Positions 5,695-53,344 of a DNA stretch of 64,000 nt are shown piece by piece; position 1 is the first letter of the stretch, and each line of letters begins with the position of its first letter. The DNA comes from Candidatus Magasanikiibacteriota bacterium (GTDB lineage Bacteria; Patescibacteriota; Patescibacteriia; Magasanikbacterales; UBA922), in contig DMXO01000005.1 of assembly GCA_003482855.1 (NCBI GenBank), forward strand, positions 10,736 through 74,735, written 5' to 3'. The translations under genes were made by a program, and so were the position numbers. Below the pieces are notes generated by a model. That model saw only the letters and a list, made by a program, of their open reading frames with translations. It was not told where the DNA came from and did no database searches.

Positions 5695-6942
5695 ATGAAA
5701 CAAGCCCTTAAACATTTTTTCATACCTCACGAAGGGAATAATTATCATCCGCATATTTTGCATACCAAGCGGGCAATTATGTATAGTGGTATTTTTTTGG
5801 CTACCAAATTTATTGTTATTAGTTTTGCTGTTTTGTTGCCATTGCAAGTATTTGTTATGCCAGACGTCTTGCAGGTACAGCAAGAACAAATTATTGCTCT
5901 GACCAATGATATGCGTGCACGCAAAGGATTGCCTCTGCTTCATGATCAGACAAAATTATATGTATCGTCTCAGATGAAAGCAGATGATATGGCAGCAAAG
6001 CAATATTTTGAACACGTGGGTCCTGATGGGAAAGGACTCAAGGATTATATGTATGCAGCTCAGTACGATTATCGTTACGCAGGAGAGAATCTTGCAATGG
6101 GATTTAGCAACGCACAGGAGCTCGTGTATGCGTGGGCCAATAGCCCTACTCACTATGCCAATCTTATAGATACTGATTATAATGAGTTCGGTGTAGGGCT
6201 TGAGGTGGGTGAATACAATGGTGTACCGACGATATATGTGGCCCAGCATTTTGGCTCTCCTAGCATCACTACAAGCACACAAGAGGCAAATGAAAGCCCA
6301 GTGACTTCTACCTTCGTAGGTGAAGTAGCATCTAGCAAATTAGATACATCAGAAATTTATGTCGAGGCATCTGACGTTATCCACGAAAAAAATATTGCTC
6401 AATCCAATATACATGTAAATTCACCATCCATTGTATATAATAAAGATGTTTCTCGTGTATTTTGGCGTGAAGAAGACGGAAGGACAGTGCTTACTGCCAA
6501 AGCATATATCGTGGGGGATGTAGTATCTGCTATAGTTCGTGTGAATCAATATAGCATTGAGTTATTTCCCTCAGAGCAGCCGTTTGTATATCACGGAGAA
6601 ATCACAGTATTTGATTCGAGCGATAATTTGTTCAAGGTGATAACAACGCCTACTATCGCTATCAATGGTGTGAAGGACGTTTTTACGCAAGATACAATTT
6701 TGTGGAATACTGTCAAAGTCGTAGCACCCACACCTATGGAAAAATACACCCAGGCAAAAACATTGCTTGGTGGATTTACTCGTATCTTTGATATATCAAG
6801 GGGAATTTATCTGGGTTTTATCATCTTTTTTAGCATCGCCCTTGCTTTAAAAATTTTTATCGAATTTAGGAAACAACACCCTCATGTCATATTGCAGACC
6901 ATACTACTTATTGGACTTCTTGTTATATTATTTGAAGTATAG
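5695..6942 (+). CDS. CAP/SCP (YkwD-like) domain protein with an N-terminal TM anchor and a C-terminal TM segment
   Basis: CAP-domain motifs (HS-like region ...GENLAMGFSNAQELVYAWANSPTHYANL...EFGVG). Hydrophobic N- and C-termini. Confidence 0.65.
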   Translation: MKQALKHFFIPHEGNNYHPHILHTKRAIMYSGIFLATKFIVISFAVLLPLQVFVMPDVLQVQQEQIIALTNDMRARKGLPLLHDQTKLYVSSQMKADDMAAKQYFEHVGPDGKGLKDYMYAAQYDYRYAGENLAMGFSNAQELVYAWANSPTHYANLIDTDYNEFGVGLEVGEYNGVPTIYVAQHFGSPSITTSTQEANESPVTSTFVGEVASSKLDTSEIYVEASDVIHEKNIAQSNIHVNSPSIVYNKDVSRVFWREEDGRTVLTAKAYIVGDVVSAIVRVNQYSIELFPSEQPFVYHGEITVFDSSDNLFKVITTPTIAINGVKDVFTQDTILWNTVKVVAPTPMEKYTQAKTLLGGFTRIFDISRGIYLGFIIFFSIALALKIFIEFRKQHPHVILQTILLIGLLVILFEV

Positions 6943-12427: not shown

Positions 12428-12458
12428 AAACACGCTGGAAAACGGCGTGTTTGTTGTT
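12428..12458 (+). terminator. Rho-independent terminator after the rsmB-like gene
   Basis: 8-bp stem AAACACGC/GCGTGTTT followed by TTGTTGTT. Confidence 0.65.
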
Positions 12459-12683: not shown

Positions 12684-15600
12684 ATGAGTCGTTTTATTTC
12701 AGGTTATATAGCGCGCATGAGACATTCTGTCTCATTGAGAGCGCCCAAATTTGGGAGCCGATGGACACATCGAGTATTTTTTGTTGCTGTAGTTGTGTTC
12801 GGTGTCCTTGCTGTAGGGCAGGTAGTAGGTGCTCTTGATATAGTAGGTGGCCTTATCAGCGCAGTATCATGGATCATGCTTACCGTAGCCCAGATTTGTA
12901 TTGCACTTACTATATTTTTTCTTAGATTTTTTATTACACTTGCAAGCTACAACAACTATATAGATGTGAGTGTGGTGAAACTTGGTTGGGCCATGGTGCG
13001 TGATGTGGCAAATATGTTTTTTGTGGTGGCGCTTCTGATTATCGCGTTTGCTACTATCCTCGGACTTGAACAATATGAATGGAAAAAGGGCTTAGTCAAG
13101 CTTGTGATCATGGCTATTTTCATCAATTTTAGTAATCTCATTGCTCAACTTATTATTGATGCCGCGCATGTATTTACCATTACATTTCTCAATGCAATAT
13201 CAGCAACTGCCGGTGGCAACCTGATCAACATGTTTAAGCTTGACACGATTGTGACCATGGTAAGTGGCAAAGATCTAGGTGTGACTCCAGAATCAGCACA
13301 AACTGCCATACTCGGCGCTTCGGTTGTCGCGACATTGTTTGCCATTCTCTCAGCGGTTGCGCTTGGCTCGTATGTGATTGTCATGGCGATCCGTGTCGTG
13401 GTATTGTGGGCACTTATTATACTTTCTCCTCTTGCGTATGTGCTGTATGCAGTACCAAAGGGTGAAAAGTACGCTCAGCAGTGGTGGAGCGAATTTACCA
13501 AGCATGTTGTTGTCGCGCCGGTTATGGTTTTCTTTTTGTGGCTTGCGTTTGCCACACTTGGCTCAGGACAAATCTTGAATGAGATTGTAGGACCAGGAGT
13601 GGTGCCTCTCCAGGTGGGTGAAGAAGTACAGTCAGTGTCCCTATCAAATGTATCTTCATGGGAAAACATGGCAAATTATCTTATCGCGCTTGTATTTCTC
13701 ATGATTGGTCTCAAGATGACTCAGGAGAGTGGTGCCCAAGGTGCTGGACTTGTTGGTGGCGCAGTAAACTTTGGCAAGAAAGTGGCAACTATTGCAACGG
13801 GCTATGCTGCAGGTAGGTGGCTTGTAGGTGGAGCTGCAAAAGTTGCGGGTGGTGTTGCAAAAGGCGCCCTTTGGTATGCACCTGCTATTGGTGGAGAGAA
13901 ATGGGCTACAAGAGGCAAAATTATTGGCAATGCAGTGAAAGGTTGGTATAGAGGCAAAGGATATGAGACAACTGATGAAGGTGAACATATACGCCAAGAG
14001 ATAGAAGAAAAGCGTGAATTATTGGATAATGCCAATAGCCCAGAGCGACGGGCTGCGATTGCAAAACAAATAGAACAATTGAAAAAAGAAGAGACATCAA
14101 TAGGGGAGAAGAAAGCCGATGGTTCAGAAGGTGCATATAAAAGTGAGGCAGAAAAGAAGGCGGCGCTCGAATCAAAGCAAGCAGAAATACAGAGAAACGA
14201 AAAAATGCTTGAACAATCTCAAGGTATGACTGAGACCCAGAGAGCAGGTCTCAAGGAAGAAATAGAAGGACTTGAAAAAGAAATGCCTAAGCATATGGGT
14301 GGTGGTATGTTTGGTTATTTTGCACGCAAAGATATTCAATTACAAAAACAATTGGCAAAAACAGAAAAACAACAAGATTTTAGAAAACAAATTCTGTGGA
14401 AACGTGTAGGCTCTGAAGCAGGTGGCAATGTCATGGGTTTGAGTATTGGTATGGGAGGCAGAGGCCTTGGTTTTGGCAAGACAGGTAAGTACAGAATTTT
14501 TGGTGATAAATATAAGCAAGAAGTCAGAGAATGGGCAAAAGATGCAGAAGGTAAAGATATTGTGGGGCAACAAGCTGTGTATTTGGAGGGTTCAAAAAAA
14601 GGACAGAAAAAATGGAAACAAAAATATGCAGGCAGTGATGCCCAAGATCGTGTAGAGCGTGGGTGGTTTCAAGCAGAAGAAGAACGTTCAAAATCGAAAG
14701 ATTCTGAATATGAAACTCTAGGTAAATTGGAAGTGTTGAAAAAATCACGTCTCAAATATGATGTCGAGAGCGGAAAATTTGCTTATGAGACTGCGAAGGG
14801 TACTATGGACCAGCGTATCGCAAGTCATACTATAGCAGGAGAAGTGCATCATGCAGCCATAGAGAAGCTCGAAGCAGAGGGGCGTCTCAATCTCATGCTC
14901 GGCAAAGTGAGTCTCAAAGCTTTTACAGTCAAAGGTGTCAATGATTTGTTTGAAAAGCAGTCTATGGCAAAAGTGTACAAAGATGCGCTTGCTTCTGTGG
15001 AAGATACCAAGCTCAATGATAAACTGTCTGAAAAAATGAAATATGGGACTGGGCTGGACAAGATAGCATCACTCGTAGAGTCAGGTATGTTTGGTACGCC
15101 TGAAGAAATAGGAGCCATAGAAAAAGCCCAAAAAGAATTAGATGCTATAAAAAAAGAAAGAGAAGTAGCAAGAAAGGATGTGGTAGAAACAAACACAAGT
15201 TTGGCCGCTTTGGTAAAGAAAGAACAAGATGGTGCTGAGGTTAGCGAAGATGACAAAAAAGATTTGGTATCAGCTCGCGCCACACTTGAAGATATAGAAG
15301 AAGAGGAAAATAGAGGTGATTTAACTGACGAAAGAAGAAAAGAACTTGATGAACTCAAAGCGTATGCGCAGGAAGAAATTGCAAGTATAGAAGCGCGGCA
15401 GGATATGGCAGGATCTTTGACTTCGGAAGAAGCAATAGAAAAAGCTAAATTGGAAAGGGAAAAGACAGAGAAAGAAGAAAAAATGATTGCTTTGCTCAAA
15501 AAAGAAACAGAAGTAAAAAATCGTTTGAAAACAGCGCGTGGAGTTTTTGGACAACATGCAGAACGATTGCGTGATGGTGATGAGACAATTCTTGATCAAT

Positions 15601-17447
15601 ATCAACAACAGCTTGGTGTACTTGCGTCTGGGGAAGATGCTAAGGCAGCTGCTCTTGAACAAGAAGCAGCAACAGAAAGAGATGCAGAAAAAAAGGCAGA
15701 TAAACAAAGAGAAGCTCAAGGACATAGAGCCAAAGCAGCAGACTATAGAACTACGCATGGAATTTTTGAGAAGCAGAGATCTACTCTTGGACAAGGTGGT
15801 GTTGCTTGGCAGTATGGCCTTGCCAAGGCAAAACAAGCTGAACAAAAAAGATCTCATGATTATGAACACAATTTACTCTTGTCTGATTCAGAGCAGCGCT
15901 CTATTTGGGATAAACGTGGTATCAATACGCCAACAAATGCCATGCGTGAAATGATTGAACAAATGGAAAAAGATTTTTCTCAGATGTCGTACGAGACGTT
16001 TGTCGAAAGTTCTGGCAAAATGTTTATTGAGATGGCTGAGAAGTCTGCCAAAGGTACGATTACTAATGCTGATAGAGCCGCACTCGCAGGATTTTTCAAG
16101 CGTGGGTTCAATGAATCATGGGTTGATGATGTCATCATTGGTGTGATGACCAATGAAGAATCGCGCGCTGCTATTGGTTCACAATTAGGATGGCGTGACG
16201 CAGGATTTTCTCCAGACAAAATTCGTGATCTTGAGATGTTTATTGCATCAGGTGGAAACACCAAATTTGCAAAAAATAATGTTGTTATATCTGAGATAGT
16301 AGATGAAGCAATGAATGGTGACAAAGAATATAGGATGAGTGTTGCTCAGGTATATGAGGGTCTTAATACAGGTGTTTTCAAAAAAGAGGATGGCACCAGC
16401 TTTAGTCCTGAAGCCATACAAAAATTGAAAGCAGCCACACGGAAACGTCTCACTGAAGAGAATCGCGTGTTGACTACATACCAACAAGATTTATTTGACA
16501 AATTTTTAGCAACCGAAGCCAAACAGATTGAAGGGTCTGCACAACAGCGAGGTGAGGTTATGAAGCATTATCTCGATACTCTAGAAGAAAGTCAGGGATC
16601 AATGGAGTGGTTTGGCAACTTGCGTAATGAGGCTATTCGCAATGGGCATGGTGAAAATGCTGGTTGGGCTTTGTCGCACGACGTAGGCGGTGGCAAATCT
16701 ATGTATATTGCTTCAGGTGTGCGCATGGCACGTGATCATGTATATTTTGACTTGAACAAGACTGATCAATATATGCGTTCAAAAGCGCACCCACATTCAG
16801 ACGTGAACTTGGCTATTGGTGGCGAAGGTGAAGATTACGGACAGATTTCAACAGAGATTCGAGATTATGATTACAAAACCATGCGTGGCGATATTGTGGA
16901 CGCCAATGGTCATCGTGGTACAACTGCGCGTACGATACAGTTCCACATGGGGTTGTCATCTGCAGACAAGACTGCTGATCAAAAAGATTCTAATGGATTT
17001 TTTGCTGTTGGTAAAGCAAAGAGTACGCGTGCTGTATGGAGAAAGAATCAGGCGCTCGCATTTAAGCTTGCAAAAGAAAAGAGACTTAAATTATCCAATG
17101 GCGTTACGGTAAATGAAGCTGATGAAAATAAACGAGAAGAAGCTCTTGCTGCTATGATGGTCATGAAAAACATCATGGTTCCGCAGATGCGCGCAAACAT
17201 GAATGACTTCCTCATGACTGCGGCCGTTGCTTCTGGTATGAGCGCATATGATGGAGTCAAGGGTAATATGCGTCTTTCACTGCCTTATTTTGAAAAAGAT
17301 GGAAGCGTACATTATAAATCTTTCTCGAGAGCCCAAGATTTTATAGGTGCCGTAAGGTCAGGTATGTTTGGAGAACATTTTGGTGGTATACCAAATTTCA
17401 AGCCGTCTGATTCAGGCAGACCAGATCAGGATCATACGCCTTCCTAG
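12684..17447 (+). CDS. Giant VirB6/TrbL-like polytopic membrane protein (1587 aa)
   Basis: Residues 1-330 have ~7 TM helices with TrbL/VirB6-like spacing. A Gly-rich linker follows, then a ~500-aa E/K-rich coiled coil (res ~430-1000), then a ~580-aa C-terminal domain. Sits in a locus with VirB3- and VirB4-like genes. Confidence 0.6.
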   Translation: MSRFISGYIARMRHSVSLRAPKFGSRWTHRVFFVAVVVFGVLAVGQVVGALDIVGGLISAVSWIMLTVAQICIALTIFFLRFFITLASYNNYIDVSVVKLGWAMVRDVANMFFVVALLIIAFATILGLEQYEWKKGLVKLVIMAIFINFSNLIAQLIIDAAHVFTITFLNAISATAGGNLINMFKLDTIVTMVSGKDLGVTPESAQTAILGASVVATLFAILSAVALGSYVIVMAIRVVVLWALIILSPLAYVLYAVPKGEKYAQQWWSEFTKHVVVAPVMVFFLWLAFATLGSGQILNEIVGPGVVPLQVGEEVQSVSLSNVSSWENMANYLIALVFLMIGLKMTQESGAQGAGLVGGAVNFGKKVATIATGYAAGRWLVGGAAKVAGGVAKGALWYAPAIGGEKWATRGKIIGNAVKGWYRGKGYETTDEGEHIRQEIEEKRELLDNANSPERRAAIAKQIEQLKKEETSIGEKKADGSEGAYKSEAEKKAALESKQAEIQRNEKMLEQSQGMTETQRAGLKEEIEGLEKEMPKHMGGGMFGYFARKDIQLQKQLAKTEKQQDFRKQILWKRVGSEAGGNVMGLSIGMGGRGLGFGKTGKYRIFGDKYKQEVREWAKDAEGKDIVGQQAVYLEGSKKGQKKWKQKYAGSDAQDRVERGWFQAEEERSKSKDSEYETLGKLEVLKKSRLKYDVESGKFAYETAKGTMDQRIASHTIAGEVHHAAIEKLEAEGRLNLMLGKVSLKAFTVKGVNDLFEKQSMAKVYKDALASVEDTKLNDKLSEKMKYGTGLDKIASLVESGMFGTPEEIGAIEKAQKELDAIKKEREVARKDVVETNTSLAALVKKEQDGAEVSEDDKKDLVSARATLEDIEEEENRGDLTDERRKELDELKAYAQEEIASIEARQDMAGSLTSEEAIEKAKLEREKTEKEEKMIALLKKETEVKNRLKTARGVFGQHAERLRDGDETILDQYQQQLGVLASGEDAKAAALEQEAATERDAEKKADKQREAQGHRAKAADYRTTHGIFEKQRSTLGQGGVAWQYGLAKAKQAEQKRSHDYEHNLLLSDSEQRSIWDKRGINTPTNAMREMIEQMEKDFSQMSYETFVESSGKMFIEMAEKSAKGTITNADRAALAGFFKRGFNESWVDDVIIGVMTNEESRAAIGSQLGWRDAGFSPDKIRDLEMFIASGGNTKFAKNNVVISEIVDEAMNGDKEYRMSVAQVYEGLNTGVFKKEDGTSFSPEAIQKLKAATRKRLTEENRVLTTYQQDLFDKFLATEAKQIEGSAQQRGEVMKHYLDTLEESQGSMEWFGNLRNEAIRNGHGENAGWALSHDVGGGKSMYIASGVRMARDHVYFDLNKTDQYMRSKAHPHSDVNLAIGGEGEDYGQISTEIRDYDYKTMRGDIVDANGHRGTTARTIQFHMGLSSADKTADQKDSNGFFAVGKAKSTRAVWRKNQALAFKLAKEKRLKLSNGVTVNEADENKREEALAAMMVMKNIMVPQMRANMNDFLMTAAVASGMSAYDGVKGNMRLSLPYFEKDGSVHYKSFSRAQDFIGAVRSGMFGEHFGGIPNFKPSDSGRPDQDHTPS

Positions 17448-17476
17448 TTTGACTAATTCGGGATAATGATATTTTT

Positions 17477-18649
17477 ATGTTTTCACTTGATTTCATACTT
17501 GCACAATTATATCCCTATAAGAAATTAGAAGATCTCCAAAAAATACTGGATGATGATTTTCGCGACCCTATGTTGTACCCAGAGTATGACACCTGGACAT
17601 GGAAAGAAGTGAAACAAGAGGATCTATCCGCTTTGGAAGTTCAGATACGCCTTATAAAGACTTTGTTTTCCACACAGTATCTGTATGACGGGACAGTTCA
17701 GCTTATCATGGATTCATTTGAGAAATGGAGCAAGAGTGGCACGATTGTATTTGAAGGAGTAACTCCTGATGACCAATTATTTTTGGAACGATATTATTGT
17801 TTTTTGGGATGGCTCCATTTTGCCCATATTACGTATGCACGCAAATTATATTTGCTTGAGTCACGCTTTTTGCCGTTGGCTATTGTGTGGGATATTCCCG
17901 TATACAGTAACACGCAGGACTACTTTGCTCAGTATATATATGTAGATGGCTTGCGTGAGGACAGTACCGTATTTGCTGATGCTATGGGTCGCAATGAGAC
18001 ACCCTTGGGTTTACCAGAAAAAGGAGCAAAGACGATAGGTGAGTGGATGGTGATATTCGACGAGTTTGAAGGTAGCTCTATACCTACGCGCGTGGATGAG
18101 TTTATGAATGACAAGATGGAAATCCAACGCCTCAACGAAGATGAAAAGAAAATTTTGTACAAAATTATTACTTTGTATTGGGGATTGCGCGGAGGTTTCA
18201 TCTATCGTGAGATAGAAAATGAAGTGCCTGGCTCATATACCGAGAAAGCAAAAAAGGAAAATAAATCAGTTGATGATTATTATCTTGAGGCATTATACGA
18301 GGCTACGAGAGAGCAATTCAAACAATGGCTTACGACATGTGGCGAGGCGGCGTATTGGATGTATCTGACCAAAAAAGATCAAAATTTTATAAAAAAGTTG
18401 ATTTATATTTTGCTCGAAAAAGCAAATTTGGATGATGATGACGAAGCTCAGATGCTCATTGAATTTTTTATGGTTCTTGAAGAATTTGGTTTGACTGGCT
18501 TAGAGGATGTTATTTATTTTGATGAATCAAAAGGAGGTTTTGCATGGGATGAAGATAGACTGGTAGGACTTCAACCAATCATCGGTGGAAGCGAGCCTGA
18601 CACCAAATCAGGAGACAAGAAACCACCAAAAGAATTATTTGCAGGATAG
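17477..18649 (+). CDS. Hypothetical acidic cytoplasmic protein (390 aa) in the T4SS-like locus
   Basis: ORF; no TM; no recognisable family. Confidence 0.5.
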   Translation: MFSLDFILAQLYPYKKLEDLQKILDDDFRDPMLYPEYDTWTWKEVKQEDLSALEVQIRLIKTLFSTQYLYDGTVQLIMDSFEKWSKSGTIVFEGVTPDDQLFLERYYCFLGWLHFAHITYARKLYLLESRFLPLAIVWDIPVYSNTQDYFAQYIYVDGLREDSTVFADAMGRNETPLGLPEKGAKTIGEWMVIFDEFEGSSIPTRVDEFMNDKMEIQRLNEDEKKILYKIITLYWGLRGGFIYREIENEVPGSYTEKAKKENKSVDDYYLEALYEATREQFKQWLTTCGEAAYWMYLTKKDQNFIKKLIYILLEKANLDDDDEAQMLIEFFMVLEEFGLTGLEDVIYFDESKGGFAWDEDRLVGLQPIIGGSEPDTKSGDKKPPKELFAG

Positions 18650-18653
18650 ATAT

Positions 18654-19895
18654 ATGGCAGATGGCACAACACAACCTACCATACTTATAAAAAAGGCCGA
18701 CGGTAGTACGGTTCGTGTTTCGCTTGATGAATTTCGTAAACAAAAAAAGGGGAGTGAAACTTTGTCTACATCATCATCAGACGTACAGGATGTAAAAGGT
18801 ACTTTAGTTACAGATGAATTTCCTCAGATTGAAATAGAAAAAGGAAAAATTATCCCAGATAAACAACCAAAAGACGTACAGGCTCCTAGACCACGCCCTG
18901 TCCCTCTCTATACCATTCAAGATTTGAAAGATACACAATCCAAAGATGTAGAAACTAGACAAGAAGTAAAGAATATTGAGGTTGAAGATAATACACTACA
19001 AGTGGCATCTCCTCATGAACTATCTACGACAGCACCAGTGTCGCGTATATTTGTGGATGAAGCTCAGGCACAGGCCGAAGAACACTTGCCAATGGATTTT
19101 TCTTCCCTTTTGGAAGAAGATATGTCTGAGGTAGATACTCTGAAACAAGAGGGAACTACTCATGAGACTCATGAACAGCTACAGACACAAGTATCTGCGC
19201 CAAGAGTTGGTGTAGTGGATACTCTCGAACCACGTCTCAAATCTCTCATCATTTCATTTGAAAAAGGTGTGAGAGATGAACATCAGTTTGTCGAGTATGC
19301 CATGCGTAGCATTGAACAAGGAGGCCTAGGGATGACAGAGGACATGGCTTATAGGACACTGAGTGAAGTGAAAAAGAGTACGCCACAGATACAGAAACAA
19401 CCTATTATTGCCAAAAAAATGGTGAAGCAAGGTGCGCCTTCCATGGATACATCAAACCATGTAGTTCAACCACCCAAATTGACGCGCGTAGATACGGCTC
19501 TCCCGCCACGCATGGTACATGTATCACCCCCCTCAGTGAGGCACGATATTGTACCGGGCATGGGAGTGCAAAAAGCTATGGGACCTATTGAAGAAATAAA
19601 AGAGTTTACGCTTATTGATCTGCGTCGTCTGTCTCGTGATGCAAACACGGCAGCAGATATGCTCTATGCCAAATTCAATGGATGGAAAGAAGAATCTTTT
19701 CTTCTTTATATGGATGTCCGCAGTGCATGGAGACAAAGTCCTCTCTATAGAGAATATATTTCTATTACGACACGAGCATTGGATACGCATATGCATGTGC
19801 AGGATGTTATTGAGGCACAATCATCGTCATCTGGTGGATTGACATTTAGAGAATACATGGGCCTTGTGTCTTTCAACAAAAAATTGGGAATATAA
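18654..19895 (+). CDS. Hypothetical protein (413 aa), likely largely disordered, in the T4SS-like locus
   Basis: ATG 18654 lies just after the upstream stop; the ORF track's 18585 start overlaps the previous gene. Pro/Gln/Thr-rich. Confidence 0.5.
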   Translation: MADGTTQPTILIKKADGSTVRVSLDEFRKQKKGSETLSTSSSDVQDVKGTLVTDEFPQIEIEKGKIIPDKQPKDVQAPRPRPVPLYTIQDLKDTQSKDVETRQEVKNIEVEDNTLQVASPHELSTTAPVSRIFVDEAQAQAEEHLPMDFSSLLEEDMSEVDTLKQEGTTHETHEQLQTQVSAPRVGVVDTLEPRLKSLIISFEKGVRDEHQFVEYAMRSIEQGGLGMTEDMAYRTLSEVKKSTPQIQKQPIIAKKMVKQGAPSMDTSNHVVQPPKLTRVDTALPPRMVHVSPPSVRHDIVPGMGVQKAMGPIEEIKEFTLIDLRRLSRDANTAADMLYAKFNGWKEESFLLYMDVRSAWRQSPLYREYISITTRALDTHMHVQDVIEAQSSSSGGLTFREYMGLVSFNKKLGI

Positions 19896-19898
19896 TAT

Positions 19899-20330
19899 AT
19901 GCAACAGTTTATCGTACCACAATTTATTGATGTGGAAGACAAAATATTTGGTCCTATTACGACACGGCAATTTTTGATTCTTTTGGTTGCCGGTATTACT
20001 ATTTTTTTTACCTATCGGTTTGGAGATTTTTCTTTATTTATTGTTATGCTTGCTCTTGGTGGTGGGTCGTCGCTTGTATTTGCATTTGTACGCATCAATG
20101 GACAAGCATTTCATTATTTTCTTTTAAATATTATTCAAACTGTCCGGAGACCATCACGAAGAATATGGTCGAAGAGGTATACCAAAAGGGATTTGGATTA
20201 TCTGCGTAAACAGACGGTAGAAGAACAAGTAGAACAAGAAAAAAAGAAACCAGCAAGGAGAGAACATATTAGAGACTTGGCGTTACTCGTGAATACGGGC
20301 GGTTTTTATCGACCAGAAGATGATCTATAA
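19899..20330 (+). CDS. PrgI/VirB3-like small membrane protein
   Basis: 143 aa, two TM helices after a QFIDVEDKIFGPITTRQF motif, directly upstream of the VirB4-like gene. This arrangement is typical of Gram-positive T4SS. Confidence 0.45.
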   Translation: MQQFIVPQFIDVEDKIFGPITTRQFLILLVAGITIFFTYRFGDFSLFIVMLALGGGSSLVFAFVRINGQAFHYFLLNIIQTVRRPSRRIWSKRYTKRDLDYLRKQTVEEQVEQEKKKPARREHIRDLALLVNTGGFYRPEDDL

Positions 20331-20336
20331 TAATCT

Positions 20337-21023
20337 ATGAAAAGCAAAAAAGCACAACAAAAAAATTCTAAACAACCGGCAACACAACTCCATCTTCCTA
20401 TTGCTGAAATAAAGGACGGTGTGGTGATTCTCAAAGATGGCACCTTGCGCGCGGTAATGTTGGCATCGAGTATCAATTTTGCACTCAAATCTGAAGATGA
20501 ACAAAATGCTATTATTTCATCATATGTTGGTTTTCTCAATTCAATTGATTTCCCTATACAAATCGTTGTCCAGTCACGTCGATTGCAGATCAAGCCGTAT
20601 GTAGAACATCTCATCGATATCGAACAAAAGCAAACCAATGAACTTTTACGTGTACAAATAGCAGACTATCGCGCATTTATCGAAGAGCTTGTTGACATCG
20701 GCAAAATTATGACCAAGAGATACTATGTTGTGGTACCCTATGATCCTATTTCAAATAAACAGAAAAGTTTTTGGTCAAGATTCAAAGAGGTCATTAAGCC
20801 GGCATTTACACTGCGACTCAAAGAAGAACGTTTCCAACAACGTAAAGGTGATCTTGATTTGCGTGTGCGTCATGTGAGTAGCGGTTTGTCGGGGATCGGC
20901 CTCGAAGTCGCTCAACTGGATACTCAAGCGCTTATTGAGTTGTATTATGGCACCTACAATCCCGATATATCATTTGCTGAACAACTTGGCGATATACAAA
21001 AGCAACAAATAGAATATACCTAG
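20337..21023 (+). CDS. VirB4/ConE-like N-terminal domain (228 aa); apparently the first piece of a split VirB4
   Basis: IAEIKDGVVILKDGTLRAVMLASSINFALKSEDEQNAIISSYVGFLNSIDFPIQIVVQ resembles the start of Gram-positive VirB4 (ConE/TcpF/PrgJ). Ends LIELYYGTYNP. Confidence 0.5.
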   Translation: MKSKKAQQKNSKQPATQLHLPIAEIKDGVVILKDGTLRAVMLASSINFALKSEDEQNAIISSYVGFLNSIDFPIQIVVQSRRLQIKPYVEHLIDIEQKQTNELLRVQIADYRAFIEELVDIGKIMTKRYYVVVPYDPISNKQKSFWSRFKEVIKPAFTLRLKEERFQQRKGDLDLRVRHVSSGLSGIGLEVAQLDTQALIELYYGTYNPDISFAEQLGDIQKQQIEYT

Positions 21024-21110
21024 AGTATAGATTGTATATATATCTTGGGAGAGAAGTGCAGAGGTTATGTTGTTATCTTGAGATTTAAAGAAGTTTTAAA
21101 AATTTTTAAT

Positions 21111-21242
21111 TTGTCTAATTCATCTAATTTTCTAATAAAATTTCTAATAAAAAAATTCAAAATTAAATTTTGCACGATATTAGATAATTTGAGATTTTAT
21201 TAGAAATTAGACAATTAGGTGAATTAGAAATTTGTAGACAGT
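21111..21242. repeat. MITE-like imperfect palindrome (family B) inside the 272-bp gap between the VirB4 pieces
   Basis: Left arm TTGTCTAATTCATCTAATTTTCTAATAAAATTTCTAATAAAA and right arm TTTTATTAGAAATTAGACAATTAGGTGAATTAGAAATTTG are reverse complements. A related copy lies at 53149-53250. Confidence 0.55.
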
Positions 21243-21295
21243 TATACATATTTGTACCGTCAATTTAAAATATAAACATTTGGTACATGTAAATT

Positions 21296-23185
21296 TTGTT
21301 AAGTGTATTTATGCCATTTAAACCCGTTAGTTTTGGAAAATCAAAAGCAATGACACCAGTTCGTACTCCCAAAGATGCGGAGCAAGAGCGGGTTCAAAGC
21401 GAGATGGTCACTCTCGAAGAGGAACGCCTCTATCGTGAGGGTACTGTTGCGATACGTGACCTCATTGCCCCATCAGCACTCAATATCGAGGCGAGCTTTT
21501 TGCAGCTTGGCACGACATTTTTGCGTACTATTTTTGTCGTGAGTTACCCACGTTACATTTCAGTTGGCTGGAGTGCACCTATACTCAATCTCAATCTGAC
21601 TATGGATGTGAGTATGTTTTTTTACCCTGTGAATTCTGCCATTATCCTGAAACAATTAAAAAAGAAAGTGGGCGCTTTGCAAGCTCAGCTCTCTGCGGAT
21701 GCTGAAAAAGGTGCCCCTCGTGATCCATTACGTGAGACAGCGTTACGTGACATTGAACAACTTCGAGATGATCTTACACAGGGCATTGAACATTTTTTTC
21801 AATTTGCTTTTTATATAACCCTATATTCAGATTCCAAAGAAGATTTGGAAAAAGTCACCGAAGATATACATAATATTTTTGGTTCCAAGCTTATCCACAG
21901 TAAACATGTACTGTACCAAGCTGAGCAAGGATTCAATTCTACGGCCCCTTTGGGCATTGATGAACTCGTGATTTCATTCAACATGAATTCATCTCCTATA
22001 GCTGCGTCGTTCCCATTTATTTCTTCTGAACTTACAAGTGATGATGGTATTTTGTATGGTATCAACAAACACAACAACAGTCTCATATTATTTGACCGTT
22101 TTTCATTGCAAAATGCCAACATGGTTGTATTTGCCACGTCTGGTGCTGGTAAATCATATGCAGTCAAGCTCGAGATTTTGCGCAGTCTTATGATGGGCGT
22201 GGATATCATTGTTATTGACCCTGAAATGGAGTATGTACATCTGTGTGAAGCAGTAGGAGGTACTTATATCAATATTTCACTTGCCTCAGAGAGCAAGGTC
22301 AATCCGTTTGATTTGCCACGTCCTGTCGGCCAACAAATATCTACCGAAGATGTTATACGTAGTGCGGTCATTACGCTCAAAGGATTGCTTCGTATCATGT
22401 TTGGTGCCATGACTTCGCAGGAAGATTCTATTTTGGATCGTGCATTACTTGAGACATATGCAAAAAAAGATATTACTGCGGCAAGCGACCTTGCCACAGT
22501 TGAGCCGCCGATTATGCAAGATCTGCTTGATGTACTCGAGGGCATGGAAGGCGCTGAAAATTTGGTTGTCAAATTGCAAAAATATACTGAAGGTACTTTT
22601 TCTGGGTTGTTCAATTCTCCGACCAATGTAAATACGAGTAATCAGCTTGTCATCTTTAGTGTTCGCGATTTGGAAGATGAATTGCGTCCTATGGCTATTT
22701 ATACATTGGTCAACTATATTTGGAATATCGTTCGTAGCGAACGAAAGAAGCGTCTCCTCATGATAGACGAGGCATGGTGGCTCATGATGCACGAAGATAG
22801 TGCCAAATTTATGTATGCGCTCGTGAAACGTTGCCGTAAATATTATCTTGGTGTTACGACGATTACTCAGGACGTCAATGATTTCTTGCGCTCTCCTTAT
22901 GGTCAAGCAATTGTGAACAACTCCGCGCTCCAACTATTGCTTCGCCAGTCACCATCCGCTGTAGATGTCATTCAAAAGACATTTATGTTGACTGAGGGTG
23001 AAAAGTATTTGTTGTTGGATAGCCCTGTGGGTCAGGGAATTTTCTTTGCAGGCAATAAGCACGCTGCTATTCAAGTCATTGCATCATATACCGAAGATCA
23101 ACTTGTTACTTCCAATCCCCAACAATTGCTCGAGATAGAGCGTGCAAAAAAAGAATTTGAAGAACAGATGATGCAAAATAAATAA
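21296..23185 (+). CDS. VirB4-like type IV secretion ATPase (C-terminal 629 aa; second piece)
   Basis: VirB4 mid-domain pattern IAPSALNIEASFLQLGTTFLRTIFVVSYPRYISVGW. Walker A FATSGAGKSYAVK; Walker B LLMIDEAWWLM. TTG start at 21296; ATG at 21311. Confidence 0.8.
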   Translation: MLSVFMPFKPVSFGKSKAMTPVRTPKDAEQERVQSEMVTLEEERLYREGTVAIRDLIAPSALNIEASFLQLGTTFLRTIFVVSYPRYISVGWSAPILNLNLTMDVSMFFYPVNSAIILKQLKKKVGALQAQLSADAEKGAPRDPLRETALRDIEQLRDDLTQGIEHFFQFAFYITLYSDSKEDLEKVTEDIHNIFGSKLIHSKHVLYQAEQGFNSTAPLGIDELVISFNMNSSPIAASFPFISSELTSDDGILYGINKHNNSLILFDRFSLQNANMVVFATSGAGKSYAVKLEILRSLMMGVDIIVIDPEMEYVHLCEAVGGTYINISLASESKVNPFDLPRPVGQQISTEDVIRSAVITLKGLLRIMFGAMTSQEDSILDRALLETYAKKDITAASDLATVEPPIMQDLLDVLEGMEGAENLVVKLQKYTEGTFSGLFNSPTNVNTSNQLVIFSVRDLEDELRPMAIYTLVNYIWNIVRSERKKRLLMIDEAWWLMMHEDSAKFMYALVKRCRKYYLGVTTITQDVNDFLRSPYGQAIVNNSALQLLLRQSPSAVDVIQKTFMLTEGEKYLLLDSPVGQGIFFAGNKHAAIQVIASYTEDQLVTSNPQQLLEIERAKKEFEEQMMQNK

Positions 23186-23207
23186 ATTTACTACTAAATA
23201 ATATTAT

Positions 23208-23798
23208 ATGCTTTCCCTACGTCAGAGAATATTTGCAATTACGGGCGTGATATCTGCTATCCTTATTATTATCGTGTTATTTTTTGTACTTAGGTCACGT
23301 GACACAGATGTCTCTACACAGACATCTACTTCGACTGACGTACTTACCATAGAAGACACGGTCCGTCAAAATATCCAAGTGCCCAATAATCAACAAGTAA
23401 ATCGTGCGCCTGTTGACCCTGAAGAAAATTATGTGAAGCAGCTTGCGCGTATTTTTGTTGAACGATATGGTACGTATTCAAATCAAAATGAAGATATTCA
23501 TATTGCCGACGTGGATGACATCATTACTTCACGAATGCGTACATGGATACAGTCAAGCACATCCACTGACAGTCGTGTATATGAGGGCGCTACGACTCTC
23601 GTATTGAGTAGCCATATAAAACAATATGACACGCAAGCTGGCACCGCGATTGTGGCTATCGAAGTACAACAAGAAGTCATGAGACAGACAGATGCTTTAG
23701 GCACTATATCAGAGGATACGATTTTGAGGGAGGCAGATGTGAATTTGATCAAAGTGGATAACACATGGAAAGTAGATGGCTTGTGGTGGCAAGATTAA
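23208..23798 (+). CDS. Bitopic membrane protein (N-terminal TM plus ~160-aa extracytoplasmic domain); possible VirB8-like component
   Basis: 196 aa; single TM at residues 10-28; lies directly after the VirB4-like gene. The VirB8 assignment is speculative. Confidence 0.35.
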   Translation: MLSLRQRIFAITGVISAILIIIVLFFVLRSRDTDVSTQTSTSTDVLTIEDTVRQNIQVPNNQQVNRAPVDPEENYVKQLARIFVERYGTYSNQNEDIHIADVDDIITSRMRTWIQSSTSTDSRVYEGATTLVLSSHIKQYDTQAGTAIVAIEVQQEVMRQTDALGTISEDTILREADVNLIKVDNTWKVDGLWWQD

Positions 23799-23816
23799 TT
23801 TTTAAGTTGGAGGGAG

Positions 23817-24524
23817 ATGAACATAAAAGCAATATACAAACAGGGGATATGTATAACCAAAGATATTTTGTTTCCTGCATATTGTCTTGGGTGTGGTAAA
23901 GAGGGTATATTGGTGTGCAAAGATTGTTTGCAGACACTCGATTGTTCGGGTGTTTTTTGTTGTCCCGTGTGCCATGCTTCTTCCCTAAATGGTAAGGTCT
24001 GCGAGATATGTATGGCGCAGTCGTATTTGGACCGACATGTAGCAATTACTCAGTACAAAGAAAAAGGCCTTGTAGGAGATATGTTGCATATGTTCAAATA
24101 TTCATATGTAGAAGATATGGCACAAATACTGCGCGACATGGCAATCAAATTTTCACAGGTATATTCATTTGACGTGGATATTGTAGTTTGTGTCCCCTTG
24201 CATCGTAGGAGATTGGCACAACGCGGATTCAACCAAGCAGAAGAGATCGCGCGTATTAGTTCACAAGTTTTTGACATACCTTTTCACAGTATCTTGAGAC
24301 GGTGTCGTCACACTAGGCAGCAAGCAAAGCTGAATCGTGAAGGTAGATTAGTCAATCTTATTGACGCATTTGAAATTATAAAAAATGATTTTGATTTGAA
24401 TAATAAGAGGGTTTTGCTCGTAGATGATGTACTGACAACAGGATCAACTATGCAAGAATGTGCAAAGGTTTTGAAAGGGGCTGGCGCAAAAGAAGTGATA
24501 GGATTTAGTGTGGCGCGTGGATAA
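23817..24524 (+). CDS. comFC: ComF family protein (ComFC; phosphoribosyltransferase-like with an N-terminal Zn-ribbon)
   Basis: Four CxxC pairs in the N-terminal half. PRTase motif VLLVDDVLTTGSTM. Confidence 0.8.
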   Translation: MNIKAIYKQGICITKDILFPAYCLGCGKEGILVCKDCLQTLDCSGVFCCPVCHASSLNGKVCEICMAQSYLDRHVAITQYKEKGLVGDMLHMFKYSYVEDMAQILRDMAIKFSQVYSFDVDIVVCVPLHRRRLAQRGFNQAEEIARISSQVFDIPFHSILRRCRHTRQQAKLNREGRLVNLIDAFEIIKNDFDLNNKRVLLVDDVLTTGSTMQECAKVLKGAGAKEVIGFSVARG

Positions 24525-24553
24525 AAAAGAAGATACCAGTGTATCTTCTTTTT

Positions 24554-24643
24554 TGGCGGAGAGAGTGGGATTCGAACCCACGGTGGACTTTCATCCACAA
24601 CAGTTTTCAAGACTGCCGCCTTAAACCACTCAGCCATCTCTCC
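24554..24643 (-). tRNA. tRNA-Ser (anticodon UGA), type II, CCA encoded
   Basis: Minus-strand clover-leaf: GGAGAGA acceptor, anticodon loop CUUGAAA, long variable arm, GGTTCGAAT T-loop, discriminator G. Confidence 0.85.
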
Positions 24644-24728
24644 ATTTAAATAATTAGAACTAGTATCTATCTCGCTTACGCGAGTCTGGCGGACTGTGTC
24701 CGTCGTAGCTCGCTTTGGCGAGCGAAGG

Positions 24729-24815
24729 CGGAGAGGGCGGGATTCGAACCCGCGAGGGAATTGCTTCCCTAACACATTAGCAGCGTGCCGCTTTCGGCCA
24801 CTCAGCCACCTCTCC
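24729..24815 (-). tRNA. tRNA-Ser (anticodon GCU), type II
   Basis: Acceptor GGAGAGG/CCTCTCC, anticodon loop CUGCUAA, long variable arm, T-loop TTCGAAT, discriminator G. Confidence 0.85.
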
Positions 24816-24874
24816 ATTGGGATTTGTTACGCTACGTTGGGCAAGTGTGTAGGGCGTAGCATAAAGGAGTCCTG

Positions 24875-24961
24875 CGGAGAGTGAGGGATTCGAACCCCCG
24901 GTCCCCTTGCGGAGACTGCAGTTTAGTAAACTGCTGCTATCGACCACTCAGCCAACTCTCC
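24875..24961 (-). tRNA. Type II tRNA (Ser-like identity: G73, GGAGAGU acceptor) with anticodon loop UUACUAA, i.e. an apparent ACU anticodon
   Basis: Manual fold: acceptor GGAGAGT/ACTCTCC; D-arm GCT...AGC; anticodon stem GCAGT/ACTGC; loop TTACTAA; 17-nt variable arm; T-arm GGGGG-TTCGAAT-CCCTC. Anticodon identity needs tool confirmation. Confidence 0.7.
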
Positions 24962-38679: not shown

Positions 38680-40905
38680 ATGCTCCCTTGGATTCTCAAA
38701 ATTAAGCTGAATAAAAAAACTGCTATAGCTTTCTTTGCTCTCGTGGTAGTTTTTTGTTTTTTAATTCCTCATGTAAGTGTATCAAATGTTTTGGCACAAG
38801 ATACTGATACATTTGGTGTAGCGCCTATTGATCAGGATATTCTTTTGACAAATACTGATATTAGGGTTGTTGTTGTCAAAATAATCAATACTATCTTGGG
38901 TTTATTAGGCCTTATTGCTTTGTCCCTCATATTATATGCAGGATTTGTCATCATGACATCTGGTGGACAAGAGGACAAGATAGCCCAGGCACGAAAGACT
39001 TTGATAAACGCAGTTATTGGTCTTGTTATTATATTGTCAGCATGGGCAATCGTTCGTTTTGTATTCAATGCATTGACCGGAGGATTCAATGAGCCTGGTG
39101 GAGAAAGGCCTCCAGTTATGGCGACCTTTAGCGGTTCAGGAGCGCTTGGTCGCGTGGTGAAAGACCATTATCCATTTCGAGATGCGACTGATGTCGCGCG
39201 CAATACGAGCATTGTGGTGACATTTGGTCTTGCCATTGATCCTGCAAGCATTGCAATAAATACCAATGGGACATGTTGGGGTGGAGACAACAATCCAACA
39301 GATGTATGTGGAGAAGGAAGTGTTCCTTATTTTGGTGATTGTTTTGATACTAACAATGATGGGGCTATTAGTTGGTCCAATGAGTGCGATCAACTCAATA
39401 CCTCTACAATCAAGATCGATTTGGCTGATCGCGTAGATACGTCGCTTGAACAAGATGATGACGCTGGACTTGCAGCAGCGGTTGTAGCCAGTTATGAAGG
39501 TGCGGGTGGGCCAAATGACAAGAATGTATTTACGGTGGTATTTAAACCTTTGGAATATTTGGGTAGCCAAACAGAAAAACAATTATATACTGTTGATTTG
39601 AGATATGAAATTTATAAAAAAGGACTTGGGGAAAGTATATTTGATGGACAATTTGTTCCCAAATATCACTGGAGTTTTGAAACAGGTACAGGACTTGACC
39701 TTAGCCCTCCCCATGTAGAGAGCGTATACCCAGATCAGGGTGGTGAAGTAGCCAAAAATACTATTGTACAAATCAATTTTGACGAGGCAGTAGATCCAAC
39801 GACAGTACAAGGATTGGTGAGTCAGCAGGGTGTTTTTGAAAATATATTACTCAATACACAGATAGGTGGTGTCGACACATCAGTGACTGGTACATGGAAA
39901 ATTACCAATGGATACAAAACCGTTGAATTCATATCAGATGAGCCGTGTGGTCTCAATAGCTGTGGTGAGATGATGTACTGTCTGCCAGTAGACTGTAGTG
40001 GTACTGGAGTAGATACATGTGTCAAAGGATATGCCGCACTTGTGCGTACAGCAGAGTGGACACAAAATGCCGAAGCTCCTTTTGAAGCGCAACCTTTTTC
40101 TGGTGTGTACGACCTTGCATTCAATGGTCTTGATAATGTAAATGATAACACTGGATTTGATGAAGTATTGAATAAACCAGCAGGCGCGGCATATACAGGC
40201 AAGGTTATTAACTCTGGCGAAACAAACCCAGATAACTACTGGTGGAATTTTAATGTAAAAAATGAAATAGATCGATCGACTCCATATGTGGAGTCAACCA
40301 AGCCTGGTGTAGATGCACAAGAAATAGATGGTGAGGCTTCTCTCGAAATTGGGTTTAGTAAAGTGATGTGGCTGAGCACCATGAATGATATATTACTCAC
40401 TGAATATCCGGTGCATGTATGCGCCAATGCCGCGGTAGGTGATGTGCGTCCAGAGGATGTGGTGTGTGAGATGAGTGAGAGATTGGATGATATATGGTTT
40501 AGCACAGGTGCAAAAATGCTCAACAACAAAACAACATCATATACCAAACATCGTACATTTGGGCCAAATGGCATTGATCTCTATTATTTTCCTTCGGTGC
40601 CAAGTACGGTCAAAAGTGCTAACCAAAATTGTGTATACCCTGGTCGTGGACCGTGGGATGGAGATTCTGCATTGCCTGGTCAGGCTTCAGAGTGTAGTGT
40701 TGCATTTGATTCCAATGGCACTATTTTGTCGACCACAGGCTGTGTTGGTGTCACGACGGTGAGTAGTACTGATACAGGGTGTGTTTATACTGGTGTCACG
40801 GTTACTGATCAAAATGATTCTGATATGTTGAAATCAGATGTAGGAGAATGTATTAATATACTTAGAAATGAAGATATAAGTCCAACAAGATATCAGGGTC
40901 TATAA
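38680..40905 (+). CDS. Surface protein (741 aa): signal peptide, VirB2/TrbC-pilin-like two-helix N-terminal module, then Ig-like (Big/SbsA-type) extracellular domains
   Basis: Residues ~40-135 (QDTDTFGVAPIDQ...IRVVVVKIINTILGLLGLIALSLILYAGFVIMTSGGQEDKIAQARKTLINAVIGLVIILSAWAIVRFV) match the T4SS pilin pattern and are ~65% identical to the N-terminus of the next ORF. Downstream has repeated P.VES..P..G..V.....I.I.F....D Ig-like units. Confidence 0.6.
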   Translation: MLPWILKIKLNKKTAIAFFALVVVFCFLIPHVSVSNVLAQDTDTFGVAPIDQDILLTNTDIRVVVVKIINTILGLLGLIALSLILYAGFVIMTSGGQEDKIAQARKTLINAVIGLVIILSAWAIVRFVFNALTGGFNEPGGERPPVMATFSGSGALGRVVKDHYPFRDATDVARNTSIVVTFGLAIDPASIAINTNGTCWGGDNNPTDVCGEGSVPYFGDCFDTNNDGAISWSNECDQLNTSTIKIDLADRVDTSLEQDDDAGLAAAVVASYEGAGGPNDKNVFTVVFKPLEYLGSQTEKQLYTVDLRYEIYKKGLGESIFDGQFVPKYHWSFETGTGLDLSPPHVESVYPDQGGEVAKNTIVQINFDEAVDPTTVQGLVSQQGVFENILLNTQIGGVDTSVTGTWKITNGYKTVEFISDEPCGLNSCGEMMYCLPVDCSGTGVDTCVKGYAALVRTAEWTQNAEAPFEAQPFSGVYDLAFNGLDNVNDNTGFDEVLNKPAGAAYTGKVINSGETNPDNYWWNFNVKNEIDRSTPYVESTKPGVDAQEIDGEASLEIGFSKVMWLSTMNDILLTEYPVHVCANAAVGDVRPEDVVCEMSERLDDIWFSTGAKMLNNKTTSYTKHRTFGPNGIDLYYFPSVPSTVKSANQNCVYPGRGPWDGDSALPGQASECSVAFDSNGTILSTTGCVGVTTVSSTDTGCVYTGVTVTDQNDSDMLKSDVGECINILRNEDISPTRYQGL

Positions 40906-52607: not shown

Positions 52608-53069
52608 ATGCACACGACAAGAAATATTTTATTCATAGTTGCTCTTATTTTTCTTTTGGGATTGGGTGTGTTTTACATATTCTTTTTTATGAAGAAACCC
52701 ATGCCTATACAGCAAACAAATAATGATATACAACAAGTGGATACTACAAATAAGATACAACAGCAGATACAAGAAACAACAGGAATGGACGTATCAATAA
52801 ATCTAGATGATTTCAAACCCTCATCTCCAAAAGAAATGCCTGAGTGGTATGCCACAGACAAAGATGAAGATGGTCTAACCGATGAAGAAGAACAAAGACT
52901 TGGTACAAATGTATGGGAACCAGATAGTGATGGGGATGGATTGCCCGATAAGGTAGAAATAGAGAAATACAAGACAGATCCTATGAAACCAGATAGTGAT
53001 GGAGATACATACTGGGATGGATTGGAAATTACCAATGGATATAATCCGTTGGGAGAAGGGAAGATATAA
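52608..53069 (+). CDS. Small TM-anchored protein (153 aa) with a C-terminal triple dockerin/EF-hand-like Ca-binding repeat
   Basis: N-terminal TM; Q/N-rich linker. C-terminus DKDEDGLTDEEE...DSDGDGLPDKVE...DSDGDTYWDGLEITNGYNPLGEGK, with Dx(D/N)xDGxxDxxE loops. Confidence 0.55.
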   Translation: MHTTRNILFIVALIFLLGLGVFYIFFFMKKPMPIQQTNNDIQQVDTTNKIQQQIQETTGMDVSINLDDFKPSSPKEMPEWYATDKDEDGLTDEEEQRLGTNVWEPDSDGDGLPDKVEIEKYKTDPMKPDSDGDTYWDGLEITNGYNPLGEGKI

Positions 53070-53148
53070 TAGTCTTCCCAATGCCGTGATTGTAAGATAC
53101 CATGTAAGAATTCCAAGCGCTGTCTGTACTTTTATGGGATAGTAAATT

Positions 53149-53250
53149 CATCTAATTCACCTAATTTTCAATTCACCTAATAAAAATTTAAAATCAAAAT
53201 GCTAAAAAATGTATATTTTTTGAATTTTATTAGATGAGTTAGGTGAATTG
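53149..53250. repeat. MITE-like imperfect palindrome (family B copy)
   Basis: Arms CATCTAATTCACCTAATTTTCAATTCACCTAATAAAAA and TTTTTGAATTTTATTAGATGAGTTAGGTGAATTG. Shares words with the element at 21111-21242. Confidence 0.5.
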
Positions 53251-53344
53251 CAATTTAGCGAATTTATTAACTGTAAGAGCATAAACAACGCTCATAATTC
53301 TAACATTTTTATCCACGTGATTAATTATTATCCTATATTATTCT

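Follow-up and report, generated by a model that had tools for sequence, protein, structure and literature searches.

A chromosomal type IV secretion operon ending in comF, probably vertically inherited, in Candidatus Magasanikbacteria

Introduction

What kind of machine is encoded by a type IV secretion system (T4SS)-like locus that ends in a competence-type gene and has no conjugation genes next to it? The question is posed by eight genes at positions 12684-24524 of a 64-kb stretch of Candidatus Magasanikbacteria DNA (contig DMXO01000005.1, positions 10,736 to 74,735; hereafter, the window). Candidatus Magasanikbacteria belongs to the Patescibacteria, or candidate phyla radiation (CPR), a group of ultrasmall bacteria, and GTDB places it within the class ABY1. 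Patescibacteria account for a large share of bacterial diversity and apparently live on other cells, and their conserved chromosomal T4SS counts among the handful of machines with a demonstrated essential role in that lifestyle.

A first-pass annotation, made from the sequence alone, described a T4SS-like locus and proposed a DNA-uptake or contact apparatus located on an island integrated at a tRNA cluster. We conclude that the region is very probably the core operon of a chromosomal T4SS of the Patescibacteria type, which is vertically inherited and derives from mating-pair formation class FATA (MPF-FATA), the conjugation machinery of monoderms. By analogy with Southlakia, a role in host contact or macromolecule transfer appears more likely than a role in conjugation. 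The combination of a T4SS operon with a comF gene is real, conserved and typical for Candidatus Magasanikbacteria.

Gene content of the operon

All eight open reading frames (ORFs) of the locus are present on the plus strand in the order first described (VirB6-like protein, two unassigned proteins, PrgI/VirB3, VirB4, a bitopic protein and ComFC), and their coordinates stand as first read with the exception of two starts (Table 1). The third gene begins at ATG 18654, giving a protein of 413 amino acids (aa), instead of GTG 18585, while virB4 begins at ATG 21311 (624 aa), a Met with a homologous counterpart in all relatives, instead of TTG 21296. Public gene calls on identical contigs comprise the same set of proteins of 1587, 390, 413, 143, 228, 624, 196 and 235 aa. 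The 196-aa and 413-aa proteins share 100% identity with counterparts in a metagenome-assembled genome of Candidatus Magasanikbacteria. Tight gene spacing and hairpin terminators at both ends define, as judged from the sequence, a single transcription unit. Its upstream boundary is the hairpin at 12428-12452, which had already been called a terminator and has a real fold by free energy and z-score; a consensus terminator scan did not pick it up.

The T4SS character of the locus is borne out by VirB3, VirB4, VirB6-like and VirB8-like parts. Annotation with profile hidden Markov models placed VirB3 and VirB4 above their cutoffs and identified TrsD, whereas the VirB6-like and VirB8-like proteins of the window gave no direct sequence match. 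VirB4 belongs to the CD1110-type family NF045971 (1.3e-103, 347.7 bits against a cutoff of 325) and is also matched by PF19044 (8.8e-30) and by the VirB4 structure 4ag5 of PDB (4.8e-47). Its ATPase motifs are intact, with SGAGKS as Walker A and LLMIDEAW as Walker B, and its best plasmid matches come from monoderms at 29-35% identity. The 143-aa protein matches PF12666 (PrgI; E 2.8e-9, 37.8 bits against a cutoff of 27) and has a hydrophobic hairpin at residues 20-64.

The 1587-aa protein carries about seven transmembrane (TM) helices between residues 31 and 293. A segment rich in Gly follows, and then an E/K-rich stretch of about 1,190 charged residues; this architecture reads as an extended VirB6. 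Searches of Pfam, NCBIfam, PDB profiles and, by tblastn, plasmids gave no direct VirB6 match for the protein itself. However, PF04610 (TrbL) is matched by nine of 36 Magasanikbacteria orthologues (best E 3e-6) and by a homologue that is 46% identical (P0013; 28.5 bits against a cutoff of 25.9), and a near-identical variant from the Joint Genome Institute (JGI) weakly matches PF19590 (TrbL_3). The protein is probably VirB6-like, an assignment that holds transitively through its relatives. Its N-terminal domain is conserved in 57 of the 80 relatives described below; the C-terminal region is poorly conserved and has no matches.

In the bitopic 196-aa protein, a disordered linker joins the N-terminal TM helix to an NTF2-like domain at the C-terminus. 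Its predicted fold is best matched by VirB8 structures in a fold search, and on this model the assignment as a VirB8-fold component is well supported. A VirB8, TraE or PrgL sequence match is absent (PF04335 in one and PF05309 in two of 38 orthologues, with E about 0.015), and the PDB profile search likewise found no match. Of the two unassigned proteins, the 413-aa one occupies the same position in 73 of 80 relatives and combines a conserved N-terminal beta-hairpin motif (PTILVKKADGT) with disordered linkers and two helical domains; a search for structural matches returned none. The 390-aa protein has no Pfam, NCBIfam or PDB match and is detectable in only ten of the 80 relatives, at 23-45% identity.

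Table 1. Features of the T4SS locus and of related regions in the window
Feature	Position	Strand	Basis or remarks
Intrinsic-terminator-like hairpin, 3' of rsmB	12428..12452	+	10-bp stem then UUGUUGUU; dG -15 kcal/mol, z -4.5
Extended VirB6/TrbL-like polytopic membrane protein, 1587 aa	12684..17447	+	TM profile, orthologue matches
Soluble acidic 390-aa protein, accessory	17477..18649	+	no TM helix
413-aa clade-specific T4SS-associated protein	18654..19895	+	
PrgI/VirB3-like small membrane protein, 143 aa	19899..20330	+	PF12666
TrsD-like protein, 228 aa	20337..21023	+	NF041427, PF26593 TraC-like
AT-rich palindromic repeat element in the trsD-virB4 spacer	21111..21233	.	inverted repeats, fold z -3.2
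VirB4 ATPase, monoderm (CD1110 / MPF-FATA) type, 624 aa	21311..23185	+	NF045971, PF19044, 4ag5
VirB8-like bitopic protein, 196 aa	23208..23798	+	predicted fold
ComF (ComFC)-type protein, 235 aa, last operon gene	23817..24524	+	TIGR00201, PRK11595, PF00156, PF18912
Hairpin resembling a bidirectional terminator, between comF and the tRNA-Ser genes convergent with it	24522..24555	.	15-bp stem, A-run/U-run flanks; dG -15.3 kcal/mol, z -6.8
tRNA-Ser x3 (UGA, GCU, ACU)	24554..24961	-	ARAGORN, Rfam
Two pilin-domain surface genes, 741 aa and 3,891 aa	38680..52588	+	PF18895, Big_5, TIG, VWA

Conservation in relatives

A VirB4 scan with one genome per species detected 456 relatives, of which the best 80 by VirB4 similarity were kept. 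Almost all of these are Magasanikbacteria, as indicated by title or by the conserved locus, and their VirB4 proteins are 75-92% identical to that of the window. Essentially all 80 share the operon order, in which the VirB6-like N-domain comes first and the 413-aa protein, PrgI, TrsD, VirB4, the 196-aa protein and ComF close the series; the synteny comparison proposed by the first-pass annotation therefore extends the operon to 80 species-level Magasanikbacteria genomes. Wherever the contig extends far enough, Hsp20, VanW, ClpP and SMC follow downstream, and in the closer relatives the tRNA ligase and RsmB precede the operon.

Median identities in the same genomes equal 80% for VirB4, 80% for ClpP, 74% for the Asp/Asn-tRNA ligase (AsxRS), 72% for TrsD, 63% for PrgI and 49% for SMC. 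VirB4 is thus conserved as well as ClpP and better than AsxRS and SMC, a core-gene pattern that suggests strong purifying selection. As a side observation, many public metagenome-assembled genome records titled 'uncultured Gammaproteobacteria bacterium' (e.g., those of loci L004-L006 and L010-L012) carry a locus of the Magasanikbacteria type. Their VirB4 proteins are 76-86% identical to the window VirB4, and these titles are probably wrong taxonomic labels.

Chromosomal context and the island question

The first-pass annotation regarded the locus as an integrated island at the tRNA cluster, and one could go further and see in it what is left of an element, integrative conjugative or mobilisable, that inserted at the tRNA-Ser cluster and has lost its relaxase and coupling protein. 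The position of the locus, adjoining the tRNA cluster and lying between two terminators, would fit such a history, as would the kinship of its VirB4 to conjugative ATPases of Firmicutes and Actinobacteria and a recent repeat-element insertion within the operon. The three tRNA-Ser genes announced downstream of the locus are indeed there (Table 1).

However, the surroundings are those of a housekeeping region. Upstream lie the ribosomal spc operon, within which the window opens (L5, S8, L6, L18, S5, L15, SecY, Adk, Map) and then RuvX, RecO, Asp/Asn-tRNA ligase and RsmB, and downstream lie Hsp20, VanW, ClpP, an NrnA-like protein, SMC and S16. The GC content is flat at about 0.40 across the window, with no skew anomaly. 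No tRNA-derived direct repeat, i.e. no copy of a tRNA end, was found at the left border, and scans for domains in ORFs of at least 100 aa across the 64 kb revealed no VirD4/FtsK, relaxase, VirB11 or recombinase/integrase domains. The tRNA genes are on the strand opposite to the operon with their 3' ends facing comF, and in 37 of 70 relatives tRNA-Ser genes are found no more than 1.5 kb from comF, oriented either way. The cluster is a neighbour kept by synteny rather than a site of integration. Since 80 species-level genomes carry the same locus in this same context, with flat GC, housekeeping flanks and no tRNA repeat, it is not an inserted island and is vertically inherited. With VirB4 conserved to the same degree as ClpP, and with no integrase in the scanned ORFs, descent from a decayed mobile element is very improbable.

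The doubt first cast on a conjugation role is upheld by these scans: with no relaxase, coupling protein or VirB11 in the window, the locus is most likely not a conjugation apparatus.

Some variation is seen on the 3' side of the operon. The comF-hsp20 interval ranges from 0.5 to 7.9 kb in relatives, marking a variable, rearranging spot there and not in the T4SS operon, and in one relative (L002) comF is inverted and displaced.

VirB4 and TrsD as a gene pair

In the first-pass annotation VirB4 was described as being in two pieces, and the extreme form of that idea is a decaying, non-functional T4SS with a VirB4 gene broken by a stop codon and an insertion. VirB4 homology is in fact distributed over two ORFs, which are separated by 287 non-coding bases with a repeat element between them. 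The upstream 228-aa protein matches TrsD/TraD (TrsD model NF041427, 1.1e-6), is matched by VirB4 models over their N-terminal parts, and shares homology with the N-terminal domain found in long VirB4 proteins.

The comparison with relatives gives another picture. In 77 of 77 relatives, trsD has its own stop codon and virB4 is a separate gene, while the spacers range from -32 to 472 nt with varying frame relations (13 nt in the closest relative). In the Firmicute Pontibacillus, a CD1110-type virB4 is likewise preceded by a separate gene, the product of which is 31% identical (4e-29) to the TrsD-like protein, and TrsD has recognised status as a family of its own (NF041427; PMC12102498). Because the two-gene state is kept in the relatives and in Pontibacillus, the split is old and functional, and the supposed pieces are better described as an ancestral trsD and virB4 gene pair. 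Both ORFs are full length, with median identities of 72% (TrsD) and 80% (VirB4), and the ATPase motifs are intact, so that a broken VirB4 is scarcely credible, the least probable of the alternatives considered. An alternative genetic code or a frameshift was also rejected as the source of the split, as stop codons occur in every frame of the spacer and relatives share the split.

ComF and the possibility of DNA uptake

The best family for the last gene product is TIGR00201 (comF; 2.3e-27, 96 bits, below the cutoff of 233), followed by PRK11595 (GntX; 1.7e-26), which likewise stays under its curated cutoff, and PF18912 and PF00156 are both present. The protein has the architecture of a double zinc ribbon followed by a phosphoribosyltransferase (PRTase) domain, with Cys motifs and VLLVDDVLTTGST. 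Its gene lies 18 nt 3' of the VirB8-like gene, compared to a median gap of 27 nt in relatives (53 of 71 gaps do not exceed 60 nt), and no terminator was found between the two genes. The short gap and the missing terminator make co-transcription of comF with the T4SS genes likely across the clade, so that ComF is not only placed beside the VirB4 module, as first noted, but also appears to be part of the same transcription unit.

This arrangement invites a comparison with the ComB system of Helicobacter and the Ced system of archaea, in which case the T4SS would import host or environmental DNA and ComF would take the incoming single strand. Both systems are established precedents for DNA-importing T4SSs. 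The position of comF as last gene is kept in about 70 of 71 relatives, RuvX and RecO are encoded 3-4 kb upstream, and the window has no relaxase or VirD4. Moreover, the 2025 survey of Patescibacteria notes comF, recG and radA near virB4 in ABY1 and suggests coordination (PMC12102498). On the other hand, the adjacency of comF is no proof of coupling, since synteny is just as strong for the housekeeping neighbours; with general synteny as a confounder, the 80 genomes amount to about one evolutionary observation. ComF is also fast-evolving, with a median identity of 42.5% compared to 80% for VirB4, and ComEC, ComEA and DprA are not in the window.

The specific precedents fit poorly as well. The CedB model NF041017 reaches 44.6 bits against a cutoff of 700, and there is no CedA-like match. 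An outer-membrane core of VirB7/9/10 type, as found in ComB, was not detected: VirB9 and VirB10 have no matches in the ORFs scanned, and for VirB7 no usable profile exists. In Southlakia, the one patescibacterium tested genetically, epibiotic growth requires the T4SS and its pilins, while comEC, comF and dprA are non-essential and transformation proceeds via ComEC (PMC10633639; 2025 review, PMC12857230). Taken together, DNA uptake through this T4SS is unlikely, and a role in the style of Helicobacter ComB, which is drawn from analogy, remains an unproven speculation.

A related proposal, which we consider slightly less probable still, is that ComF was recruited as a cytoplasmic part of the T4SS in Magasanikbacteria and other ABY1, that the machine moves single-stranded nucleic acid in or out at the site of host contact, and that the 413-aa protein and TrsD replace the coupling protein. 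If this were true, it would represent a monoderm, ComEC-independent route of DNA or RNA import built on a conjugation-type motor.

Pilin-domain surface proteins

Two adjacent genes at 38680-40905 (741 aa) and 40913-52588 (3,891 aa) are located about 15.5 kb downstream, roughly a dozen genes past virB4. Their N-termini match the T4SS_pilin domain PF18895 at 2.4e-10 and 3.7e-6, respectively, both above the cutoff, and each protein has a signal-like helix and a two-helix hairpin. Beyond the VirB2-like pilin domain, both continue into Ig-like Big_5, TIG and VWA surface domains and are thus pilin-anchored giant adhesins, not small pilins. It is probable, though by inference, that they are the extracellular parts of the same T4SS. 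No pilin-domain match occurs within 10 kb of virB4 in any of the 80 relatives.

Two further observations concern this region. TSP3-repeat proteins are encoded at 52608-54331, after the pilin-domain genes. In addition, a metagenome contig (L170) carries about ten tandem VirB2-like pilin-domain genes with products 27-51% identical to the pilin domains of the window, an instance of the pilin arrays reported in Patescibacteria.

Proposed mechanism

Based on models of the R388 and Gram-positive T4SSs, VirB4 hexamers would be docked on PrgI/VirB3, with TrsD supplying the missing N-domain, and the VirB6-like and VirB8-like proteins would form the translocon channel in the cytoplasmic membrane. An external filament or adhesin that reaches the host cell may be provided by the two pilin-domain proteins (741 aa and 3,891 aa) through their VirB2-like domains. 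By the Southlakia analogy, the assembled machine would be an envelope-spanning device for the epibiotic lifestyle, transferring proteins or further kinds of macromolecule at the site of contact. ComF may cooperate with this machine, for instance through the handling of single-stranded DNA at its cytoplasmic face.

Comparison with known systems

The closest match is the T4SS of the Patescibacteria clade, as described for Southlakia epibionticum (SEML1_0006-0019; Wang 2023) and in the 2025 survey (Quiñonero-Coronel 2025). According to this survey, Patescibacteria possess a VirB4 clade related to MPF-FATA, along with PrgI, VirB6 and VirB2-like pilins and almost no relaxases; TrsD, a protein separate from VirB4, was the T4SS component recovered in greatest number, and VirB8 homologues are nearly confined to class ABY1 (PMC12102498). 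The window agrees with these systems in its chromosomal location, monoderm-type VirB4, separate TrsD, PrgI/VirB3 and probable VirB6, VirB2-like pilin genes nearby, lack of a relaxase or coupling protein beside virB4 and, as in ABY1, a nearby comF and a detectable VirB8-like protein. However, it differs in several respects: its pilin domains are fused to giant surface proteins 15 kb away, in contrast to a small-pilin array in the cluster; no peptidase or lysozyme gene follows virB4; the VirB6-like protein is the 1,587-aa extended form; and two extra clade-specific genes lie between VirB6 and VirB3. Since the T4SS class matches that in the literature (Wang 2023; Quiñonero-Coronel 2025), the central observation of the first-pass annotation was real, and the class had already been published. 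The locus is the textbook ABY1/Magasanikbacteria form of the known Patescibacteria chromosomal T4SS and not a new kind of system. Its value is that of a clean and complete ABY1 example, with an extended VirB6-like protein, a VirB8-fold part, the 413-aa protein, an operon ComF and pilin-domain adhesins, which can serve as a template for annotation and experiment design.

Among Gram-positive MPF-FATA systems (Trs of pGO1/pSK41, Prg of pCF10, Tra of pIP501 and CD1110 of C. difficile CTn2), the likeness extends to a VirB4 above the CD1110 trusted cutoff, a VirB3 of the PrgI family, a separate TrsD gene (in the pGO1 subclass), the order VirB6-like, VirB3, VirB4, VirB8-like, and a VirB8-fold bitopic protein comparable to PrgL, TraM and TcpC. 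Unlike these systems, the window has no relaxase, coupling protein or oriT that could be found and no VirB1-like hydrolase, and its locus occupies a conserved chromosomal site instead of a plasmid or integrative conjugative element; plasmid VirB4 proteins reach an identity of only 29-35%. The ComB system of Helicobacter pylori similarly lacks VirD4, VirB11 and relaxase, and an association with competence genes is conceivable for both; it differs in working in a diderm and in having a VirB7/9/10 outer-membrane core, no part of which was detected in the ORFs scanned here.

A cluster in a free-living Firmicute provides another comparison. The 897-kb replicon of Pontibacillus sp. ALD_SL1 (L199, NZ_CP062975.1, 351.8-361.4 kb), which is typed as non-mobilizable, encodes in the same order a pilin-like protein, a 779-aa membrane protein, a 116-aa VirB3-like protein, a 274-aa TrsD-like protein and a CD1110-type VirB4. 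Its TrsD-like protein and short VirB4 are 31% and 34% identical to those of the window, respectively, and the 779-aa protein weakly matches the profile of the window VirB6-like protein. There, virB4 is followed by a gene for a 1,050-aa peptidoglycan endopeptidase, whereas the window has the VirB8-like gene and comF. This cluster, which lies a few kb upstream of the flagellar genes flgM, flgK, flgL and fliD, may represent a free-living equivalent of the patescibacterial system.

Several points weigh against our interpretation of the locus as a vertically inherited Patescibacteria T4SS. The VirB6 assignment is transitive, and hhalign gives a probability of 18% for the match to the Pontibacillus counterpart, while the VirB8 assignment depends on an AlphaFold model built from a nine-sequence alignment. 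No VirB1-like hydrolase is encoded in the operon. The choice of relatives by VirB4 similarity inflates VirB4 identity relative to an unbiased sample. The absence of VirD4 and relaxase applies to 64 kb of the genome, and distant VirD4 homologues have been reported in many Patescibacteria (PMC12102498). Finally, essentiality of the T4SS is known for Saccharimonadia only.

Palindromic repeat element and other observations

The palindromic element of the trsD-virB4 spacer has a second copy at 53145-53249, in a spacer of the pilin cluster. Both are arrays of short units in inverted arrangement (TAATTCACC, TAATTTC, TAATTGTC ... TAATAAAAT, an AT-rich centre, ATTTTATTA ... GGTGAATTA). The motif AATTCAYCTAAT occurs eight times in the window, compared to 1.6 expected, and seven of these occurrences fall within the two element spacers. 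The spacer has no Rfam match, and nothing was found on the element in the literature. A metagenome scan located the element in at least 115 contigs (loci L084-L198); among the matches listed, 115 of 122 copies lie outside open frames and beside unrelated genes. The host contigs encode proteins that are 25-79% identical to window proteins, and the element looks like a REP/MITE-like repeat (of the repetitive extragenic palindromic or miniature inverted-repeat transposable type) that has spread over diverse Patescibacteria.

The copy in the pilin cluster raised the idea of an operator shared by the T4SS genes. This was rejected, as at least 115 copies stand by unrelated genes and none was found in the T4SS loci of the 80 relatives (1.3 Mb). 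The copy in the operon reflects a lineage-specific insertion and does not belong to the T4SS machine.

Two minor features were noted in the neighbourhood of the operon. A 415-aa protein with a CAP domain (cysteine-rich secretory protein) is encoded at 5695-6942, between adk and map in the housekeeping tail. At the other end, the tRNA-Ser gene at 24874-24961 on the minus strand has the anticodon ACU, with the anticodon loop UUACUAA as read from the sequence. An A at tRNA position 34 is unusual in bacteria outside tRNA-Arg(ACG). A tRNA-Ser(ACU) gene stands beside those of tRNA-Ser(GCU) and tRNA-Ser(UGA) in nine of the 70 relatives with an examinable comF end.

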